DNA of 43,160 nt from a virus (IMGVR_UViG_2534681759_000012:1-43160), one strand, 5' to 3'; shown: positions 10,877 to 43,160, counted from the stretch's first letter. The notes: generated by a model from the sequence alone, not told the origin. Program-made: numbers and translations.

Positions 10877-12294
10877 TACTCAATCCTTATCTGAGCGCCA
10901 GACAGAGTGACAGGTGATTTCGTGATAACGCGCAATTTGAAGCCGACATTTTTCCTGATGCGCCCTACTCGCTTCCACAAAACGCGTTTGTCGTAAACGA
11001 ACGGTTCATTCTGTTCAATCATCTGCTCACGTCCGTAATTTATGCCGTCAGTGGTTGCAGAGAGGAACAGGCGGTCGGCGTACTGAGCTACGCCAGTGGA
11101 TGATTCCACCTCCAGATCGAAGCATCTGGCGTTATCCGCTTTGAACAGTGGAGTAAACAGCAGGTGTTCCTGTTGAAGCCCATACTGGCTGCTGATATCG
11201 AACTGCAATTTGCCAGTAACCGATTCCAGCTTATCGCCGCACGTTATCTGATTGCCTTCGTAAATGAAGTCGATAGCGCGGTACACATCGTCATACAGGC
11301 CTGTTTTCAATACACACCATTGCGGACCATTGGCGCTTGAAGATGCGTCGTATACGAGTACATGGCGCGGAAGGTGGATAATCAGCAACTCATGAGCATC
11401 AAATCGCAGCGATTCCATCACGCCATCAGCCAGTTCATCAGCAGTGTAGGAGCGGAGGATTTTCTCAATGCTCGCGCTGGCGATTGGTGACGCCTGACCG
11501 GAACCGATGATGTACACAGACGGCGCACCTGTTGCCGGATTGCTGATGAACGCATAAGAATCAGCAAACGGCGTTTTGCAGTAGGTTCCGGCAATACCTT
11601 TCTGCACCATCAGCGATGGCTGTGCGACATACAAAGCGGCACCAACGGTGGTTGCACCAGTCAGGGAGAAATATTCAATTGTCGATGAACCAAAGCAGAC
11701 GATGAAGTCTCGCCATGTACCTATGCCGATGATTCCGTCAGGCTGAGACTCGGCACGATATTGTGCACTGTATCGGTCAGGGTGCGATTCATCTTCAAGG
11801 TCAGTGATAAACCATGAATCAGTTCCGTCTTTTGACCACGCATAACGCCCACGTAAGCGCGTAATGTCACGGACCGAACCTAACTCATACTGTGTGAATC
11901 CGCTGTCCGCAGGCCAGTTTGAGACTGTTTTAACCGTGCCATCATAGCGATACTCGACCAGTTGACCATTAACGCCTACAGCCTGAGATGTCCGACCATG
12001 CGCCATTGATACGCGACCACTTCCGGCGACGTCACCGACTTCGCTTTCGCCTTTGTAGAGCTTCCCACCACACACGCGATAAACAGCACTCTGCGCCATG
12101 TTGTACTCGACACCGCGAGATACACCATTCACATCAGAACGTTTGGCAATGCCCGGGAATGAGCGAAGATAACCGCTGCTGTTGAGGATTTCTTTGGGTG
12201 TAGCCAACATATTCACTGGCAGATAGTCGATATAATCGGCGTTTCGAAAGTCTTTGCCGACACCTTTCATAAGCGGAAGTTGCTGAATCGGCAT
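10876..12294 (-). CDS. Tail accessory/hub protein, gp10-like
   Basis: 472 aa, same length as P22 gp10, between the gp4-like and gp26-like genes. Confidence 0.7.
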
Positions 12295-12795
12295 TTATTC
12301 GCTCCCGTTATCGCAAGGTTCCTTCCGGTGGAAGTAATTCCAACCGTTCCACTTCGCCAACTGATTACCACTACCAACAGGCATACGGTTTGGATAACCG
12401 GACTTACATTTAGCGGCTTTTGCCCTGTCCATTGCAGACAGTTTGACGAGTCGCTCTTTCCCGTATCTGGCAGTGGTTATAAGTTTTGCAGACGCTTCCA
12501 GCGCATAATCTGGAGCAATGCGGCAGGCAAGGTTGAAAATGACGGCATTGATAGTGTTATTTGATAAACCGTGCTCATCGCCCGGATCTGGAGCGACATC
12601 TGCATCAGCAAAAATGTAGCCAACGTTGATACCAGGTGACACATCACCGCCAAGCCATTCCGCCATCATCATTTCAAGGTCGTTGACGCCATCTTCCATG
12701 GACTGCGGTTCGACATCGGTTAACGTGGCATTTGATGCCACACCGAGCTTACGTAATGCCGCAAGAACTAAATCACCCTTCGTTGTCAGGTTCAT
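12295..12795 (-). CDS. Head completion / tail adaptor protein, gp4-like
   Basis: Internal start [33 protein letters not shown] matches the P22 gp4 N-terminus ([33 protein letters not shown]); the longer six-frame ORF (to 12858) is probably upstream read-through. Confidence 0.8.
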
Positions 12796-28133: not shown

Positions 28134-28570
28134 GCAGCCCGATCTCCCCATCGCGCTTTCCATTCGAGAGCCAGTCGCGCTTCGTCTGACCACTTAACGC
28201 CACGCTCTGTACCGAATGCCTGTATAAGCTCTAATAGCTCCGCAAATTCGCTTACACGCATCCTGCTGGTTGACTGGCCTATTACCACAAAGCCATTCCC
28301 GGCAAGGTTAGGAACAACATCCTGCTGCTTTAATGCTGCGGTAAACACACACTTCCAGCTTTCTGCATCCAGCCAGCGACCATGCCATTCAACCTGACGA
28401 GAGACGTCACCAAGGCAAGCCCAAAGCTTTCGATTCTGGTCTAAGCTGCGGTTGCGTTCCTGAATGGTTACTACGATTGGTTTGGTTGGGTCTGGAAGAA
28501 TTTGCTGTACCGCGTGAATAGCGTTTTGCTGATGTGCTGGGGATCGAATTTCAAAGGTTAGTTTTTTCAT
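28130..28570 (-). CDS. ninB: Recombination protein NinB (Orf family)
   Basis: 146 aa; sequence (MKKLTFEIRSPAHQQNAIHAVQQILPDPTKPIVVTIQERNRSLDQNRKLWACLGDV...) matches lambda NinB as recalled. Confidence 0.9.
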   Translation of the reverse strand: MKKLTFEIRSPAHQQNAIHAVQQILPDPTKPIVVTIQERNRSLDQNRKLWACLGDVSRQVEWHGRWLDAESWKCVFTAALKQQDVVPNLAGNGFVVIGQSTSRMRVSEFAELLELIQAFGTERGVKWSDEARLALEWKARWGDRAA

Positions 28571-28763
28571 GACTTCCCTCTCTAACAGATTTCAGGTTAT
28601 TCCACTCCGTTACCGCACTGCGATAATTTGCGGCCGCCACAGCGGCGTGGTTAGCGCAGTAGATTTGGCACCCGTTCTCCATGTCGAATATTGTCGGTGA
28701 TTTTCCGCATTTACATTTTTTGGCACGCGGTGCGTCTGAACACATTCCGTTAACGGTGTCCAT
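28551..28763 (-). CDS. Hypothetical Cys-rich small protein
   Basis: 70-aa ORF between helicase and ninB (CKCGK...CQIYCANH); overlaps the ninB start by ~20 nt; uncertain. Confidence 0.35.
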   Translation of the reverse strand: MDTVNGMCSDAPRAKKCKCGKSPTIFDMENGCQIYCANHAAVAAANYRSAVTEWNNLKSVREGSHEKTNL

Positions 28764-28847: not shown

Positions 28848-31328
28848 TCAGAATCCTCCTTTCTTCTTGGACTGCGGCTCCTCGCGTTCACGGCGGCGCA
28901 TTTCAGCAGACTGTTGGTCTGTGTCATAAATAGCGCCATTTGCCTGAATGCAATACACCGTGCCGGTATTGCCATGACGATTGAGACGAAGGATTAGTTC
29001 GGTTTCACCAGGTGGAACACTGTCATCAAAAGCACCTTCACGATGGATCCCCACCCAATAATCGCAATCCTGTTCAATCTGCCCTGTATCTCGTGAGTCA
29101 CTTGGTAATGGGCGTTTATTGGTTCGGCTTTCCAGTGCGCGGTTAAGCTGCGTCAGAAGCACAACAACGCAATCAAGCTCTTTGGCAAGGTTCTTCAGTC
29201 CTTTGGTGATCATGCCGTAAGCAAGGTCGTTGCGATCGGCCTTCTCAGCGGTCATTAGTGTCAGGTAATCGACCAGAATCATGCCAACACATCCTTTTTC
29301 TCGCTTGATTCGACGGCTTTCGCTGACGATTTGAGCCAGAGATAATCCCGGCGTGTCGTCGATGTAAAGCATGTCGATTTCACTCAAGCGATTGGCTGTT
29401 TCGATCGCCCTGTTGAAGTCACCATCGTAATCACCCTGATAGCCGTCATCGGCGTCATTTGTCGCCGGAAGGTAAAAAATATTCGGGTTAACACCAGACT
29501 TCTGCCCTACCAGTTTTTCCAGTATCTGGTCACCGGGCATTTCAAGGCTGAACATCAGAGCGGGCTTTTTCTCATGCACTGCGCAGTTGATTGCCATCTG
29601 GCTGTATAGCGTGGTGTTGTGGGTTAGAATGTATCCGTCAGTTGCATACAAATGTCTCTCGTGGGATACCATGATGCAAATGCACTCTTCACGTCCAATA
29701 TACTCAACCGACGTGATAACAGGCGCACTTGTTTTGATGCGTTTTGCAGTGAATTTTTGCTTCAGGCGTGGAGATTTTATGTGTGATAGAACCTCATCAG
29801 GCAACCTGATTGCGCAAATATGGGCATCCATACCTTTGCGCATTTCTCCCTTATAACTGAATTTCGGCTCCTGTTTGGTTGTCATACGACACACGCCACC
29901 AAGAGAATGCACCAGCCGCTTTACACCATCTGACAGGAACTTGCTTGCCGAGCTAAAGCGCAGGGCATTATTTCCTTCAACCCAACCATCGGTTTCAAGT
30001 AATCCGCATAGAACATCAATACGAGTTTGCTTATCAGCAGAAAAAATAATATCCGGGATAATTTTAATCTCTGACATCCGGCCGTAGATACCAAGCCGTT
30101 GCATAACCCGCGTAAGAGATAATTTGCGGCTAAACTTGTGAGATAGGGAGTAATCGCAGCCAGAAACATTTCTGACTTCAATATCGTCACCCACTTCAGA
30201 TCTTACTCGCTCAATGATGTATGGTTCCGTCATGCTGATTCGTGGCGTACCTGCAAGATTTCCATCGCCAAGTAACGCACCTAACAGCCATGGGCTAATC
30301 CCTAAATCAACAGGCAATCCGAAGTCACCGCTAATACCAGGAACATGAATGCGGCTTTGATAGCGAACGCATTCCATCATGTCCCGTAGGCGGCAGGTGT
30401 CTACAACATCAACGCCACCGGTAATACGGTTACTATGAATTTCCCACAAATGATCATCCGCGCAATCAACGGTTCTTCCGTCAGAGAACGTAACTCGGTA
30501 AATATCTCGCTCCCCTTGAGGAAAAACTCCAGACACGAATGATGGTTGTCCATCCACTGATGCTAGGGAATCTCCAACACATACGTCACGAAATGTTGTC
30601 CATGAACCATCAGCAAGCAAAATGCGTGAATTAAGCGGTTGCGCTTTCCCCATCTTAGGGCGAGCGCCAATGACAAACAGAGAGCCTTTCACCAGACCTT
30701 TCGGTGACAGCATCCTGTCCAGCGATGGGATCCCTGTGCTCATTCCTCGTTGTTCGCCTGACGGGTCAAATCGCTTCTCAAGGTCGCTAACCCAGTCTTC
30801 CATGACCTCACCAAATGAACGAAGGCCGCGACGCGATCCGGTTTTTGCATGGTCTGTCAGTTGCGTGAAAATCGACTGAATAGCTTCGTACTTCTGTGTT
30901 GCAGTCATTCCGTTGCGGGAATAGAGCAATTCCGTCGCTTCAGTCATGCGGTTGATGGCGTAGCGTTCCATTGCGGTTTCACGAACCTGCATTGCATAGG
31001 CAACGATGTTTGCTGCGCTTGGCGTGTTCTTTGCGATCTCAGCGATATAAGCAAAACCGCCAACAGACGCCGTTAACGATTTACGCTCCAGTTCATCGAA
31101 AAGCGTCAGGCCATCTACTGGCTTTTGCTCCCGGTGCATTCTGGTTATTTCTTCGAAAAGGATTTTGTGTGGTCGGCTGTAAAATGAGTCAGGCTTCAGC
31201 ATCGCCAGAACTTTCTGGACGCGCTCACTGCAGTCATCATCCAGAAGCAATCCACCAATCACCGCCTGCTCTGCCTCGATGCTATGGGGCGGCGCATAAA
31301 AATTATCGGTCATCGTGTTCACCCTCAC
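28848..31328 (-). CDS. Replicative DNA helicase (DnaB family) interrupted in-frame by an intein
   Basis: 826 aa; DnaB N-terminal domain (PHSIEAEQAVIGGLLLDD...), Walker A split as GARPKMGK / TTLYS by a 343-aa insertion, then DnaB motifs (LVDYLTLM, LLTQLNRALESR). Confidence 0.85.
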   Translation of the reverse strand: MRVNTMTDNFYAPPHSIEAEQAVIGGLLLDDDCSERVQKVLAMLKPDSFYSRPHKILFEEITRMHREQKPVDGLTLFDELERKSLTASVGGFAYIAEIAKNTPSAANIVAYAMQVRETAMERYAINRMTEATELLYSRNGMTATQKYEAIQSIFTQLTDHAKTGSRRGLRSFGEVMEDWVSDLEKRFDPSGEQRGMSTGIPSLDRMLSPKGLVKGSLFVIGARPKMGKAQPLNSRILLADGSWTTFRDVCVGDSLASVDGQPSFVSGVFPQGERDIYRVTFSDGRTVDCADDHLWEIHSNRITGGVDVVDTCRLRDMMECVRYQSRIHVPGISGDFGLPVDLGISPWLLGALLGDGNLAGTPRISMTEPYIIERVRSEVGDDIEVRNVSGCDYSLSHKFSRKLSLTRVMQRLGIYGRMSEIKIIPDIIFSADKQTRIDVLCGLLETDGWVEGNNALRFSSASKFLSDGVKRLVHSLGGVCRMTTKQEPKFSYKGEMRKGMDAHICAIRLPDEVLSHIKSPRLKQKFTAKRIKTSAPVITSVEYIGREECICIMVSHERHLYATDGYILTHNTTLYSQMAINCAVHEKKPALMFSLEMPGDQILEKLVGQKSGVNPNIFYLPATNDADDGYQGDYDGDFNRAIETANRLSEIDMLYIDDTPGLSLAQIVSESRRIKREKGCVGMILVDYLTLMTAEKADRNDLAYGMITKGLKNLAKELDCVVVLLTQLNRALESRTNKRPLPSDSRDTGQIEQDCDYWVGIHREGAFDDSVPPGETELILRLNRHGNTGTVYCIQANGAIYDTDQQSAEMRRREREEPQSKKKGGF
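29616..30644 (-). other. Intein with LAGLIDADG homing-endonuclease motifs inside the helicase P-loop
   Basis: Residues 229..571 of the helicase: starts with Ala (AQPLNSRILLADGSW...), ends ...YILTHN followed by Thr; two LAGLIDADG-like motifs (LGALLGDGNL and LCGLLETDGWVEG); removing it restores GARPKMGKTT. Confidence 0.75.
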
Positions 31329-32193
31329 GAACTTTCAGGTAGGTATTATCGTTAAGCAGGAAATCAAATCCCTTTTTGTGCCAGACGGTTCCGCGCTGAT
31401 GGTTTGGGCGCTCTTCGAACATCCATCGGCAATTTTCGCCTACGTAGCTCAAATAATTTCTCCAGTCCTGCATCGTGAACCCATGCCCGTCAAGCTGGCG
31501 GGTTATCACTCCGGCTTTGCGCCAGAACGTTCGGATCTGGTTTTTACGCTTGTCATTCAGTGCGCGGATTTTTGGCGCTTCAGGAAGGATTTCGTGGTAA
31601 GCATCGACAACATCCTGACAGCTAACGGAAGGTTTTTTCTTGTCAGACTTTTTGTCTGCTGCGGTACTCTCTAATACGTCAGTATTAGAGATATTATTTA
31701 TATTATTGTTTATGGACAACCGTTGGACAACCGTTGGACAATCTCCGCTGAGAGCCGCGCCATTACTGGTGTTTGCGTTGGACAACCGTTGGACAACCGT
31801 TGGACAATTTTTTGCCTGAAAATCGTCATATTTAACGATTGTAAACAGGCTAAATTTCTTCCCCATCGAGCAAATATTAAGCATCCCTTTCGACTCAAAA
31901 GTCCGCAATAAGCTCCGAACTTTGTTGTCGGGGATGAATGTTTCTCTGACCAGCGACGGGCGTCCAGTTATCATCTGACCGCGATCAACAGTTATCGGCC
32001 CGATATCCGTATTGACGACAGTAGATTCGTGATTAGCCTTGAGGATTAAGTGAAGCCAAAGATGTACTGCCTGAGAGTCCTTATAGAGCCTGCTGTCCAT
32101 AAACTGGCGGTGTATAGAGACATACCCCATACTGGATGCCTCCTGATGTTGTACAGGGTTATGCCTGTAATCAGCTAACTTAACGACGCCCAT
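31303..32193 (-). CDS. Replication initiator protein (lambda O-like)
   Basis: Position upstream of and overlapping the helicase gene; contains the iteron cluster and AT-rich tract inside its coding sequence (as ori-lambda sits in gene O); the true start may be internal. Confidence 0.7.
   Translation of the reverse strand: MGVVKLADYRHNPVQHQEASSMGYVSIHRQFMDSRLYKDSQAVHLWLHLILKANHESTVVNTDIGPITVDRGQMITGRPSLVRETFIPDNKVRSLLRTFESKGMLNICSMGKKFSLFTIVKYDDFQAKNCPTVVQRLSNANTSNGAALSGDCPTVVQRLSINNNINNISNTDVLESTAADKKSDKKKPSVSCQDVVDAYHEILPEAPKIRALNDKRKNQIRTFWRKAGVITRQLDGHGFTMQDWRNYLSYVGENCRWMFEERPNHQRGTVWHKKGFDFLLNDNTYLKVREGEHDDR
31711..31806. repeat. Origin of replication iterons (two clusters of about three tandem 11-bp GGACAACCGTT units) with adjacent AT-rich tract
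   Basis: Direct tandem repeats at 31713..31740 and 31775..31806 separated by ~35 bp, flanked by an AT-rich stretch (31683..31710), all within the O-like gene. Confidence 0.75.
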
Positions 32194-41036: not shown

Positions 41037-41182
41037 CTACCGGAGTAACCATGGAATCACGCCGCCTCACACTCGATGAGGCATTTTCATTTATCAAGAT
41101 ATCCAGACCAACCATCGCCGCATCAATGCGGTTTTTTATTGCCTGATTTGCAGGTTCGATTCCATATTCGGAGATAGCACTC

Positions 41183-41383
41183 ATGCAACACGAACTACAA
41201 CCTGATTCACTGGTTGATTTGAAATTCATCATGGCTGATACTGGCTTTGGTAAAACCTTCATCTATGACCGGATTAAGTCCGGCGACCTGCCAAAAGCCA
41301 AAGTTATCCACGGGCGAGCAAGATGGTTATATCGTGACCATTGTGAATTCAAAAATAAGCTCTTAAGCCGCGCTAATGGGTAA
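41183..41383 (+). CDS. xis: Excisionase / AlpA-family DNA-binding protein
   Basis: 66-aa ORF with AlpA/Xis-type HTH signature, last phage gene before the att core. Confidence 0.7.
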   Translation: MQHELQPDSLVDLKFIMADTGFGKTFIYDRIKSGDLPKAKVIHGRARWLYRDHCEFKNKLLSRANG

Positions 41384-41456
41384 AATAGCGGGTAAAATAT
41401 TTTTCACATCTAAAAAACACCATTCCAATCAATCCCCTGCCGCTTCAAGTAGATGT

Positions 41457-41471
41457 CTGCAGGGGACACCA
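41457..41471 (+). other. Prophage att core: 15-bp copy of the argW tRNA-Arg 3' end (attR)
   Basis: CTGCAGGGGACACCA matches the 3' acceptor-stem end of argW as recalled; no upstream T-arm, so a partial copy typical of the distal att site. Confidence 0.65.
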
Positions 41472-41863
41472 GATACCCTTCAAACGAAATCTACCTTCAC
41501 CCCGTAAAAGATGGGTTTGGCAGCACACTTGCCTTATATCTACTCATTTTTACTGCAACAGGTTGAAATCTCAGCACTGTCAGAAAGCGCTGATGACTAA
41601 ACAGCCCTGGGCCGGGCGATGTAACCATCACACAGAATCCTGATAGCGAAATATGGCGTGACTCGATACTTCACTCCGCAATGCATTCCTTGATGAATTC
41701 GCAGGACCGTGATACACGGGACAGGTCACTGAATGACGACAATGTCCTGGAAATCAGCGAACCGCGCATCTGAAGTACATTTGAGCGACTGTACCAGAAC
41801 ATGAATGAGGCGTTTGGATTAGGCGATTATTAGCAGGGCTAAGCATTTTACTATTATTATTTT

Positions 41864-41904
41864 CCGGTTGAGGGATATAGAGCTATCGACAACAACCGGA
41901 AAAA
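41864..41904. terminator. Candidate bidirectional terminator downstream of the permease gene
   Basis: Inverted repeat CCGGTTG...CAACCGG flanked by T-run and A-run just 3' of the minus-strand permease stop; the loop is long, so confidence is low. Confidence 0.3.
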
Positions 41905-41912
41905 GTTTACGT

Positions 41913-43160
41913 CTATATTGCTGAAGGTACAGGCGTTTCCATAACTATTTGCTCGCGTTTTTTACTCAAGAAGAAAATGCCAAATAGCAACATCAGGCAG
42001 ACAATACCCGAAATTGCGAAGAAAACTGTCTGGTAGCCTGCGTGGTCAAAGAGTATCCCAGTCGGCGTTGAAAGCAGCACAATCCCAAGCGAACTGGCAA
42101 TTTGAAAACCAATCAGAAAGATCGTCGACGACAGGCGCTTATCAAAGTTTGCCACGCTGTATTTGAAGACGGATATGACACAAAGTGGAACCTCAATGGC
42201 ATGTAACAACTTCACTAATGAAATAATCCAGGGGTTAACGAACAGCGCGCAGGAAAGGATACGCAACGCCATAATCACAACTCCGATAAGTAATGCATTT
42301 TTTGGCCCTACCCGATTCACAAAGAAAGGAATAATCGCCATGCACAGCGCTTCGAGTACCACCTGGAATGAGTTGAGATAACCATACAGGCGCGTTCCTA
42401 CATCGTGTGATTCGAATAAACCTGCATAAAAGACAGGAAAAAGTTGTTGATCAAAAATGTTATAGAAAGACCACGTCCCCACAATAAATATGACGAAAAC
42501 CCAGAAGTTTCGATCCTTGAAAACTGCGATAAAATCCTCTTTTTTTACCCCTCCCGCATCTGCCGCTACGCACTGGTGATCCTTATCTTTAAAACGCATG
42601 TTGATCATCATAAATACAGCGCCAAATAGCGAGACCAACCAGAAGTTGATATGGGGACTGATACTAAAAAATATGCCGGCAAAGAACGCGCCAATAGCAT
42701 AGCCAAAAGATCCCCAGGCGCGCGCTGTTCCATATTCGAAATGAAAATTTCGCGCCATTTTTTCGGTGAAGCTATCAAGCAAACCGCATCCCGCCAGATA
42801 CCCCAAGCCAAAAAATAGCGCCCCCAGAATTAGACCTACAGAAAAATTGCTTTGCAGTAACGGTTCATAAACGTAAATCATAAACGGTCCGGTCAAGACC
42901 AGGATGAAACTCATACACCAGATGAGCGGTTTCTTCAGACCGAGTTTATCCTGAACGATGCCGTAGAACATCATAAATAGAATGCTGGTAAACTGGTTGA
43001 CCGAATAAAGTGTACCTAATTCCGTCCCTGTCAACCCTAGATGTCCTTTCAGCCAAATAGCGTATAACGACCACCACAGCGACCAGGAAATAAAAAAGAG
43101 AAATGAGTAACTGGATGCAAAACGATAGTACGCATTTCTGAATGGAATATTCAGTGCCAT
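41913..43160 (-). CDS. cscB: Host LacY-family (oligosaccharide:H+ symporter) permease, CscB-like sucrose permease
   Basis: 415-aa 12-TM MFS protein with LacY-like N-terminus (SVNQFTSILFMMFYGIVQDKLGLKKPLIW versus LacY ...[22 protein letters not shown]); ordinary GC; outside the prophage; start codon at the window end. Confidence 0.8.
   Translation of the reverse strand: MALNIPFRNAYYRFASSYSFLFFISWSLWWSLYAIWLKGHLGLTGTELGTLYSVNQFTSILFMMFYGIVQDKLGLKKPLIWCMSFILVLTGPFMIYVYEPLLQSNFSVGLILGALFFGLGYLAGCGLLDSFTEKMARNFHFEYGTARAWGSFGYAIGAFFAGIFFSISPHINFWLVSLFGAVFMMINMRFKDKDHQCVAADAGGVKKEDFIAVFKDRNFWVFVIFIVGTWSFYNIFDQQLFPVFYAGLFESHDVGTRLYGYLNSFQVVLEALCMAIIPFFVNRVGPKNALLIGVVIMALRILSCALFVNPWIISLVKLLHAIEVPLCVISVFKYSVANFDKRLSSTIFLIGFQIASSLGIVLLSTPTGILFDHAGYQTVFFAISGIVCLMLLFGIFFLSKKREQIVMETPVPSAI

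Follow-up and report, generated by a model that had tools for sequence, protein, structure and literature searches.

The locus described here is a replicative helicase gene of an Escherichia coli prophage that is interrupted by an insert with the features of an intein. It lies in the viral sequence IMGVR_UViG_2534681759_000012:1-43160, whose full 43,160 nucleotides (nt) are referred to below as the window, and had been placed at positions 28848-31328 by a reading made from the sequence alone. These coordinates are correct, yet it is the minus strand that encodes the gene, with a single open frame across the segment, whereas the plus-strand translation contains many stops. The maximal open reading frame (ORF; 28848..31328) starts with GTG at 31328 and encodes 826 amino acids (aa). 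The true start of the precursor is, however, likely the ATG at 31313, which gives 821 aa, because this codon is preceded by GAGGGTG, because gene 44 of phage Sf6 and the Prokaryotic Genome Annotation Pipeline (PGAP) use the same start, and because GenBank has an entry for precisely this 821-aa protein, named 'helicase DnaB [Escherichia coli]'. The spliced helicase, predicted earlier to have about 483 aa, reaches that size when counted from the GTG but has 478 aa when counted from the probable ATG. The computed masses are 91.7 kDa for the 821-aa precursor, 53.5 kDa for the 478-aa predicted splicing product and 38.2 kDa for the 343-aa insert.

By its profile matches the host protein is a phage replicative helicase of the DnaB family, in line with the initial assignment as a DnaB-type helicase. 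It scores 558.6 bits with TIGR03600 (phage_DnaB, phage replicative helicase of the DnaB family; cutoff 498.65), and the DnaB N-terminal and C-terminal domains are matched well over their cutoffs by PF00772 (residues 13-117) and PF03796 (residues 572-792), respectively. The DnaB profiles match in two stretches with a break at residues 229/572 (all in the 826-aa frame), and this break is where the insert lies. Re-translation agrees with the claim that the Walker A motif is split into GARPKMGK and TTLYS by 343 residues that end in His-Asn before a Thr: the junctions read VIGARPKMGK / AQPLNS...GYILTHN / TTLYSQ (slashes mark the junctions here and below), and the insert comprises residues 229-571 of the 826-aa frame, that is 343 aa or 1029 bp (29616-30644, minus strand). 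The insertion point is, as read from the sequence, site b of DnaB, and separates the Lys from the Thr in the Walker A P-loop GxxxxGK/T; site b corresponds to the P-loop (PMC4760082, PMC6195587). Whereas the +1 residue of the DnaB intein of Mycobacterium smegmatis (Msm DnaBi1) is the P-loop Ser that coordinates Mg2+ (PMC6195587), the +1 residue in the prophage helicase is the P-loop Thr of GKT.

Alignment with DnaB homologues, which had been proposed as a check of the insertion point, shows the insert to be codon-precise. Compared with the intein-less gene 44 of Sf6, the prophage gene is longer by exactly 1029 bases, placed between GGG AAA and AC(G/C) ACG, and the boundary is unambiguous, as insert ends and flanks have no base in common. 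A megablast search of 5,426 complete E. coli genomes, with the gene as query, returned 16 full-length copies, while in about 375 further genomes only the two outer parts match, at about 99% identity; a helicase of about 99% identity that lacks the insert is carried by about 357 E. coli genomes. Likewise, 87 phage records, among them those of Sf6 gene 44, HK620 P, HK629, HK75 and VT2-Sakai P, match the outer parts only, and none contains the middle. The possibility that the insert is a non-splicing domain shared with homologues was therefore rejected, since homologues that are about 99% identical lack it. The intein reading thus survives the two tests that had been named beforehand, as homologues are free of the insert and the terminal His-Asn and the +1 Thr are present on re-translation.

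The residues expected of a splicing domain are in place (Table 1). The non-nucleophilic Ala1, the Thr at position -3 (G:5), the His-Asn end and the Thr+1 that had been read from the sequence were each found again, and the blocks A, B, F and G as well as the complete Trp-Cys-Thr (WCT) triplet, consisting of Trp67, Cys323 and Thr341, could be located. Block B reads CADDHLW, so that position B:7 is Ala62, the threonine of the TxxH motif is absent, and B:10 is His65. Block F contains the motif ECIC323IMV with a second cysteine, Cys321, close by (CIC). A PDB sequence search with the insert retrieved 6RIZ (engineered gp41-1; E=1.5e-8), 6BS8 (M. smegmatis DnaB; 1.3e-6) and 6RIX (M. chimaera), and its central part retrieved PI-SceI, with insert residues 191-256 aligned to residues 298-365 of PI-SceI. 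The top match, 6RIZ, was discounted as independent support for the triplet since it is an engineered C1A/F65W/D107C variant of gp41-1. In the HMMER alignment His65, Trp67, Cys323 and Thr341-His342-Asn343 fall on His65, Trp67, Cys118 and Thr137-His138-Asn139 of Msm DnaBi1. When the intein alone was compared with 5.8 billion proteins 28 matches were obtained, all of which, as far as they cover the relevant region, retain xHLW, the block F Cys and THN/T; the residues just before the intein in these matches are either the P-loop Gly-Lys (DnaB-type and UvrD-like hosts) or an RGR motif (PhoH-like hosts). When 11 complete inteins were aligned, with hosts of the DnaB, PhoH-like, UvrD-like and further types, H65, L66, W67, C323, T341, H342 and N343 were among the columns without variation.

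Class-3 inteins, a rarer type, are defined by not requiring a nucleophile at position 1 (PMC5222942, PMC3196547, PMC6195587) and by the WCT triplet of Trp B:12, Cys F:4 and Thr G:5 (PMC5222942, PMC3196547), and they usually lack the TxxH threonine of block B but keep His B:10 (PMC6195587). Msm DnaBi1, for which a structure is available (PMC6195587), has been proven experimentally to follow the class-3 pathway with Cys118 as the nucleophile, and all tested inteins with the class-3 signature turned out to be class 3 (PMC5222942). The insert is thus, by its signature, an intein of class 3, because it has Ala1, because it shares Trp B:12, Cys F:4 and Thr G:5 with every member of the family and because Cys323 aligns with Cys118 of Msm DnaBi1. 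This resolves the sequence-only reading, which had left the choice between class 2 and class 3 open, in favor of class 3; class 2 was rejected since the +1 residue is Thr, where KlbA inteins use a Cys+1 nucleophile, since the host is of the DnaB type and not KlbA, and since the WCT triplet is complete. We also sought a comparison with the DnaB intein of mycobacteriophage Bethlehem, the class-3 prototype. Positions 25,000-52,250 of AY500153 gave no tblastn match and no [ST]HN[STC] motif, and membership in class 3 is instead based on Msm DnaBi1. The only intein seen in that region of Bethlehem is an apparent, unrelated Cys1 class-1 intein in gp52, a 'phosphoesterase' (L031 12578-14296; EGNHD/CSWTN ... 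HLTGN/SRARDY).

The insert also carries what is, from sequence and model, a complete two-motif LAGLIDADG endonuclease of the PI-SceI kind. Both LAGLIDADG motifs noticed at the outset are present, at intein residues 119-129 and 210-221, and in the alignment of 11 inteins K194, P197, G214, L215, D219 and G220 are invariant and D127 is nearly so. An AlphaFold2 model built on this alignment reached a predicted local distance difference test score (pLDDT) of 87.2 and a predicted template modeling score (pTM) of 0.88. Its best whole-chain match in a Foldseek search of the PDB was PI-SceI (E=3.5e-17, query-based TM-score, TMq, of 0.74-0.76). For the splicing domain the target-based score (TMt) was 0.85 with Msm DnaBi1 and 0.77-0.80 with the M. 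chimaera intein MchDnaB-1, and the endonuclease fold, of the alpha-beta-beta-alpha-beta-beta-alpha kind typical of LAGLIDADG enzymes, additionally matched PI-PfuI and I-DmoI. Detection by Pfam is poor, with PF14528 scoring 22.5 bits, exactly at its cutoff, and PF05203 scoring 19.2 as compared to a cutoff of 32.1.

Table 1. Features of the helicase-intein gene and of the adjoining initiator gene (window coordinates)
Feature	Coordinates	Strand	Basis or remark
Helicase-intein precursor ORF, 821 aa (likely start)	28848..31313	-	start as Sf6 gene 44/PGAP; TIGR03600 match
N-extein, 223 aa: DnaB N-terminal domain, linker, start of ATPase domain	30645..31313	-	PF00772; 684 nt collinear with Sf6 gene 44
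Walker A part GARPKMGK, end of N-extein	30645-30668	-	translation
Intein, 343 aa/1029 bp: HINT splicing domain split by LAGLIDADG homing-endonuclease domain	29616..30644	-	codon-precise insertion, fold, PDB sequence matches
Block A (AQPLNSRILLADG); Ala1, non-nucleophilic first residue	30606..30644	-	relatives begin with Ala, or Ser in PhoH-like hosts
Block B (DGRTVDCADDHLWE); His65 (B:10) 30450-30452, Trp67 (B:12) 30444-30446	30441..30482	-	H65/L66/W67 invariant, align with Msm DnaBi1
First LAGLIDADG motif WLLGALLGDGN (intein 119-129); putative catalytic Asp127 at 30264-30266	30258..30290	-	PI-SceI/I-DmoI fold match
Block D Lys194 (30063-30065) to second LAGLIDADG motif	29982..30065	-	invariant residues in alignment of 11 inteins
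Second LAGLIDADG motif DVLCGLLETDGW (intein 210-221); putative catalytic Asp219 at 29988-29990	29982-30017	-	LLETD219G
Block F (ECICIMVSHERHLYAT); Cys323 (F:4) 29676-29678, predicted initiating nucleophile	29640..29687	-	C323 invariant; aligns with Cys118 of Msm DnaBi1
Block G GYILTHN; Thr341 (G:5), His342 (G:6), Asn343 (G:7)	29616..29636	-	invariant in alignment of 11 inteins; in 16/16 type-1 alleles
P-loop Thr+1, codon ACC, start of C-extein	29613-29615	-	ACC fixed in all intein-containing alleles
C-extein, 255 aa + stop: remaining DnaB ATPase domain	28848..29615	-	PF03796 residues 572-792
O-like replication initiator gene	31303..32193	-	phrog_345 'replication initiation O-like' 3e-85; 11-nt overlap with helicase start
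Ori-like iterons, inside O-like gene	31702-31819	-	six 11-nt-phased direct repeats of TGGACAACCGT

The same intein occupies two helicase genes, that of the window (type 1) and a second DnaB-like helicase (type 2), and its alleles are intact. The 2466-nt frame is unbroken in all 20 alleles analyzed, 16 of type 1 (from the window, six RefSeq genomes and nine IMG/VR contigs, with 15 extein haplotypes) and four of type 2. A1, H65, W67, D127, K194, D219, C323, T341, H342 and N343 are kept in each of the 16 type-1 alleles. A more distant intein, 87% identical to that of the window and found in a third helicase background (L022, IMGVR_UViG_3300022758_000093, intein at 3001-4029; exteins about 68-70% identical in nt to the window, junctions GGT AAA/intein/ACC), stands for an older line of this intein, inserted at the identical site. 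Measured against this variant, the ratio of nonsynonymous to synonymous substitution rates (dN/dS, omega) is 0.062 overall, at a synonymous divergence (dS) of 1.17; the endonuclease domain taken alone gives 0.076, and the two splicing segments give 0.03-0.05. The intein is under strong purifying selection.

Diversity within the intein is much lower than that of the sequences around it. Among the 16 type-1 alleles 12 of 1029 nt segregate in the intein versus 48 of 684 and 56 of 768 in the exteins (104/1452 nt), and nucleotide diversity is 0.0025 as compared to 0.015 and 0.019, which is about 6-fold lower (Fisher p=6e-14). At synonymous sites, determined for a set of seven alleles, the values are 0.017 versus 0.11 and 0.21. 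Since the synonymous deficit is equally strong, the pattern points to a younger common ancestor of the intein rather than to stronger constraint. Extein single-nucleotide polymorphisms (SNPs) are common to alleles with and without the intein, and the only fixed difference within type 1 is the +1 codon, which is ACC in occupied alleles versus ACG in the four empty alleles sequenced. A type-1 empty site exactly matching the ACC form was not present in the 5,426 E. coli genomes. Two truncated relatives were also encountered. One is a helicase-intein allele of 303 aa (P0011, 12 member sequences) that ends after about intein residue 75 (...HSNRIT, then VALML) and is probably frameshifted and decaying. 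The other is a 565-aa NCBI protein (P0002) in which the N-extein and the first approximately 107 intein residues (to GISGDFG) are fused in frame to a P22 gp10-like 'packaged DNA stabilization' sequence, a chimera that thus points to a large prophage deletion with one breakpoint within the intein.

The type-2 copies provide the strongest indication that the intein has moved. All four, carried by two IMG/VR contigs and by E. coli ET791 and ET846, are mutually identical and differ from the window copy at 5 of 1029 nt (99.5% identity), none of the five differences falling in a key-residue codon, whereas the type-2 exteins have only 69% nt identity and 61-69% protein identity with those of the window. 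Beyond the intein, the sequences of the two types agree for just 12 nt on the upstream side and 8 nt on the downstream side. Every occupied site reads GGGAAA/intein/ACC, while empty sites read GGGAAA/ACG in the intein-less type-1 helicase (GGCGCTCGCCCTAAGATGGGGAAA/ACGACGCTATACAGCCAGATGG, also written ...AAGATGGGGAAA/ACGACGCTATAC...) and GGTAAA/ACC in the intein-less type-2 helicase (...AAGATGGGTAAA/ACCACGCTGTAT...). The occupied footprint hence differs from type-1 empty sites on the C side and from type-2 empty sites on the N side. Such a reciprocal footprint fits what is expected from double-strand-break repair with very short co-conversion tracts, and genes with 31% divergence could not easily acquire it through ordinary homologous recombination. 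The footprint further suggests that the last jump went from type 1 to type 2. The population footprint thus supports the view that the intein is mobile between phage helicase genes, and its endonuclease would be the agent of homing. In E. coli ET846 (NZ_CP100895.1) the intein is found in two places, with four half-site matches and with one copy being our locus L027; these may be two occupied helicase genes in co-resident prophages and hence a candidate for homing within a cell. ET896, a sister isolate of ET846 from the same source, contains an empty type-2 site at an almost identical chromosomal coordinate (L028).

With regard to its distribution, the intein is a strain-level accessory element. 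Of the 5,426 complete E. coli genomes, 18 (0.33%) contain its DNA, in each case with at least 99.5% identity, and among GTDB species-representative genomes 19 pattern matches but no confirmed close copy were obtained. No annotated feature lies under any of the 18 copies, and in 8 of 8 intein-containing records inspected RefSeq/PGAP presents the helicase as two 'incomplete' pseudogene fragments. This split is likely a consequence of the intein being barely detected by Pfam. The 821-aa product in GenBank, on the other hand, belongs to a cluster of 449 members, which includes proteins from Salmonella Alachua and Shigella boydii.

Taken together, we consider it highly likely that the locus encodes a full-length class-3 intein with a LAGLIDADG homing endonuclease, inserted at site b of a prophage DnaB-family helicase, and the intein is probably active. 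In the precursor the P-loop would be split and neither bind nor hydrolyze ATP; by analogy with a P-loop intein of RadA (cited in PMC6195587) the unspliced protein should have no ATPase activity, because 343 residues separate the P-loop Lys and Thr. Cys323 (F:4), aided by His65 and Trp67, would attack the Lys-Ala1 bond and thereby take the N-extein onto its thiol, from where the N-extein would be transferred to the hydroxyl of Thr+1. Cyclization of Asn343 with the help of His342 would then release the intein, and an O-to-N shift would restore GARPKMGKT, yielding an active helicase of 478 aa next to the free 38-kDa intein. The latter would act as a homing endonuclease that cuts the P-loop-coding sequence of intein-less alleles in co-resident or co-infecting phages, with repair from the intein-containing copy bringing in the intein and no more than a few nucleotides of its flanks. 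Since the prophage has a single replication module and the intein lies within it, replication from the prophage origin should depend on splicing.

Several points weigh against this interpretation. The case for splicing, for a branched intermediate and for DNA cleavage is drawn from sequence. By the standard of the field, only a mutation of Cys F:4 can tell class 2 and class 3 apart (PMC5222942), and B:7 is Ala62 and not the Asp of the DxxH motif in Msm DnaBi1 (PMC6195587), so that details of the activation of the N-terminal junction may differ from Msm DnaBi1. Decayed copies exist, namely the frameshifted 303-aa form and the deletion fusion. The low diversity of the intein could in principle reflect a recent sweep combined with ordinary recombination and not homing driven by an endonuclease. 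Finally, intein DNA is absent from 50,697 isolated phage genomes in searches for both near and distant copies, although 87 of them carry the intein-less helicase. Intein-containing prophages may therefore not be fully viable as a source of phage; protein-level homologues of the intein do occur in phage genomes, at no more than 47% identity.

But could the gene simply be a dead helicase disrupted by an insertion, as its annotation in RefSeq/PGAP implies? The fragmented annotation of all eight records, the lack of any feature under the 18 copies and the existence of some decayed forms would be in keeping with a pseudogene. However, a frame that is intact in 20 of 20 alleles, a codon-precise insert that keeps all catalytic residues and an omega of 0.06 across the insert are hard to reconcile with it, and the submitters' own pipelines in GenBank call the 821-aa protein, while weak detection by Pfam explains the split. 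We therefore reject the pseudogene as extremely improbable. Only slightly less far-fetched is a splicing route other than that of class 3, either by direct attack of Thr+1, as in class 2, or with Cys321 in place of Cys323 as the nucleophile. Ala1 taken alone fits class 2, the CIC motif does offer two cysteines, and Tori and Perler regarded inteins with the class-3 signature as potentially using either route until Cys F:4 is mutated (PMC5222942). However, class 2 is known only from KlbA genes (PMC3196547), whereas here a Thr+1 is found in a host of the DnaB type; moreover, the full WCT triplet is invariant, it is Cys323 and not Cys321 that is invariant and aligned with Cys118 of Msm DnaBi1, and every intein with this signature that was tested proved to be class 3 (PMC5222942), which together make such a route very improbable.

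The endonuclease calls for separate consideration, as the intein might splice while its endonuclease is inactive, in which case its distribution would be the result of ordinary recombination or module exchange and a recent sweep. Lambdoid prophages are highly mosaic, the shared extein SNPs of type 1 could have arisen by general recombination, and the intein is rare, with 18 carriers in 5,426 genomes. Yet the transfer took place between genes of 69% identity, and identity ends 8-12 nt from the junctions, which leaves no homology for ordinary recombination to act on, whereas the reciprocal junction footprints fit short co-conversion tracts. In addition, the omega of 0.076 for the domain and the retention of D127, K194 and D219 in all copies argue for maintenance of the endonuclease, and we consider its inactivity improbable. 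An intein with both activities, as we favor, could also serve as a conditional switch, in that Cys323 would make maturation of the helicase sensitive to redox state or metals, possibly with Cys321 or Cys61 as a partner. Mycobacterial DnaBi1 at the same P-loop site offers a precedent, its catalytic Cys being reversibly blocked by oxidation, zinc and chlorine stress; by this analogy we regard a switch in the prophage as conceivable but unlikely. If there were such a switch, the redox state of the cell would gate phage DNA replication once the prophage is induced, an event for which oxidative or SOS stress is a frequent trigger, and the locus would offer a tractable E. coli system in which active homing and conditional class-3 splicing come together in their native context.

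The element that hosts the gene is an E. coli prophage of the P22/lambdoid type, and the prophage context presumed at the outset holds. The right end of the window (41128-43160) is chromosomal flank, with 99% identity to NZ_CP043334 on the sugar-transporter/torI side of the shared integration site, while the P22-like virion genes in the left part (5780-12300; gp10, needle and ejection proteins) reach only 91-96% identity. The window and NZ_CP043334 have the integration site and a 3.7-kb replication module in common but little else at high identity, and the sampled host prophages carry four different repressor proteins and differing nin regions, and are thus mosaic. No tRNA was found in the window. 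In the replication module, which is preceded by CII and followed by NinB and a DNA methyltransferase, the helicase gene adjoins the O-like initiator gene (Table 1). The iterons within the latter form two clusters of about three repeats each, spaced 66 nt apart, and encode the repeated peptide CPTVVQRLS; putative lambda-like origin iterons are annotated at the equivalent position in gene 43 of Sf6. Between the helicase gene and ninB lies a 70-aa Cys-rich ORF (CKCG...C...YCANH; 28551-28763, minus strand), which belongs to a function-unassigned family (phrog_6308, 4e-54). In other prophages a free-standing HNH endonuclease gene is found directly downstream of the helicase (L004 2386-2997 and L010 5563-6174, from E. 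coli CP53 and AMSCJX03); it occurs beside the helicase in both intein-less and intein-containing prophages, and a further locus (L011) has IS100 there. The junction downstream of the helicase thus seems to be a hotspot of mobile insertions.

What makes this intein worth studying? Work on class-3 inteins has mostly been done in reporter constructs or in mycobacteria, whose DnaB-1 inteins have lost the endonuclease. Here, a probably active class-3 intein with an intact endonuclease is found in temperate phages of E. coli, Salmonella and Shigella, where crosses, induction and mutagenesis are routine. Moreover, the natural series of alleles with and without the intein, comprising two helicase types, empty and occupied sites, the 87% variant and a 47% homologue in Shiga toxin (Stx) phages, constitutes an unusually clean record of homing, in which the co-conversion tracts span no more than a few nucleotides. 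Should splicing be rate-limiting or conditional, it would impose a post-translational checkpoint on prophage replication. And finally, surveys based on the RefSeq annotation will under-count inteins and over-count 'defective' prophage replication modules.

How does the prophage intein compare with known systems? The cyanophage-like gp41-1 intein (6QAZ; engineered 6RIZ) shares with it a DxHLW-like block B, an ICI-xV block F and the ILTHN end (PMC7664689), but gp41-1 is a natural split/mini intein of class 1 with Cys1, and the Trp and Cys of 6RIZ are man-made. PI-SceI from yeast VMA1, PI-PfuI and TliVMA have the same two-domain architecture, with a TMq of about 0.75 for PI-SceI, and inteins of this type conserve the residues of blocks C, D and E, with an Asp in each LAGLIDADG motif and the block D Lys, as does the prophage intein. 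However, they are class-1 inteins with Cys1, only about 15% identical in sequence, and have other hosts and targets, and PI-SceI is about 110 aa larger judging from the matched chain lengths.

Closer in host and insertion point are Msm DnaBi1 and the DnaB-1 inteins of M. chimaera and M. leprae (6BS8, 6RIX), which reside in the same family of helicases at site b, have the P-loop Ser/Thr as +1 residue and display the same signature with almost the same numbering (Ala1, His65, Trp67, Cys F:4, Thr-His-Asn). Similarity to the prophage intein amounts to E=1e-6 and a TMt of up to 0.85. Yet the mycobacterial DnaB-1 inteins are mini-inteins of about 139-145 aa without an endonuclease, located in the essential chromosomal dnaB gene and equipped with Ser+1 and a DxxH block B, whereas the prophage intein has 343 aa, an intact LAGLIDADG domain, a prophage helicase as its host, Thr+1 and an Ala at B:7. 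Furthermore, the Cys48 that belongs to the redox trap of Msm DnaBi1 corresponds to Ile48 in the prophage intein, which instead has a family-conserved Cys61.

The closest described homologue is the intein in the P protein (primase-helicase) of Stx2 phage vB_EcoP_24B (phi24B), of Min27 and of many Stx2a phages, with 46.6% identity over 343 residues (E=6e-87), which we found through a match to phrog_510 (1e-48) and by tblastn of phage genomes. It has the same architecture and the same class-3 signature, is inserted in a P-loop (GHGK/ACPL..DHLW..ECLCIMV..ATHN/TEV) and likewise resides in a replication protein of a lambdoid phage of E. coli. Its host, however, is a TOPRIM primase fused to a gp4d-type helicase, as opposed to the DnaB-type helicase of the prophage, and whereas isolated Stx phages commonly carry the phi24B-type intein, the prophage intein occurs in none of the 50,697 phage records. 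The phi24B P intein was reported in 2012 by Smith et al. only as an intein of unknown function, without analysis of class or mobility (PMC3430580). Our literature searches, whose coverage is incomplete as many subscription papers lie outside it, returned no earlier description of an intein in DnaB-like helicases of the Sf6/HK620/HK022 type. Thus, while class-3 inteins in the P-loop of DnaB are well studied and a homologous intein of Stx phages was already on record, the present work adds the class assignment, evidence that the intein moves between two helicase genes of divergent sequence, the connection with the P intein of Stx phages and the recognition of a systematic mis-annotation in RefSeq.

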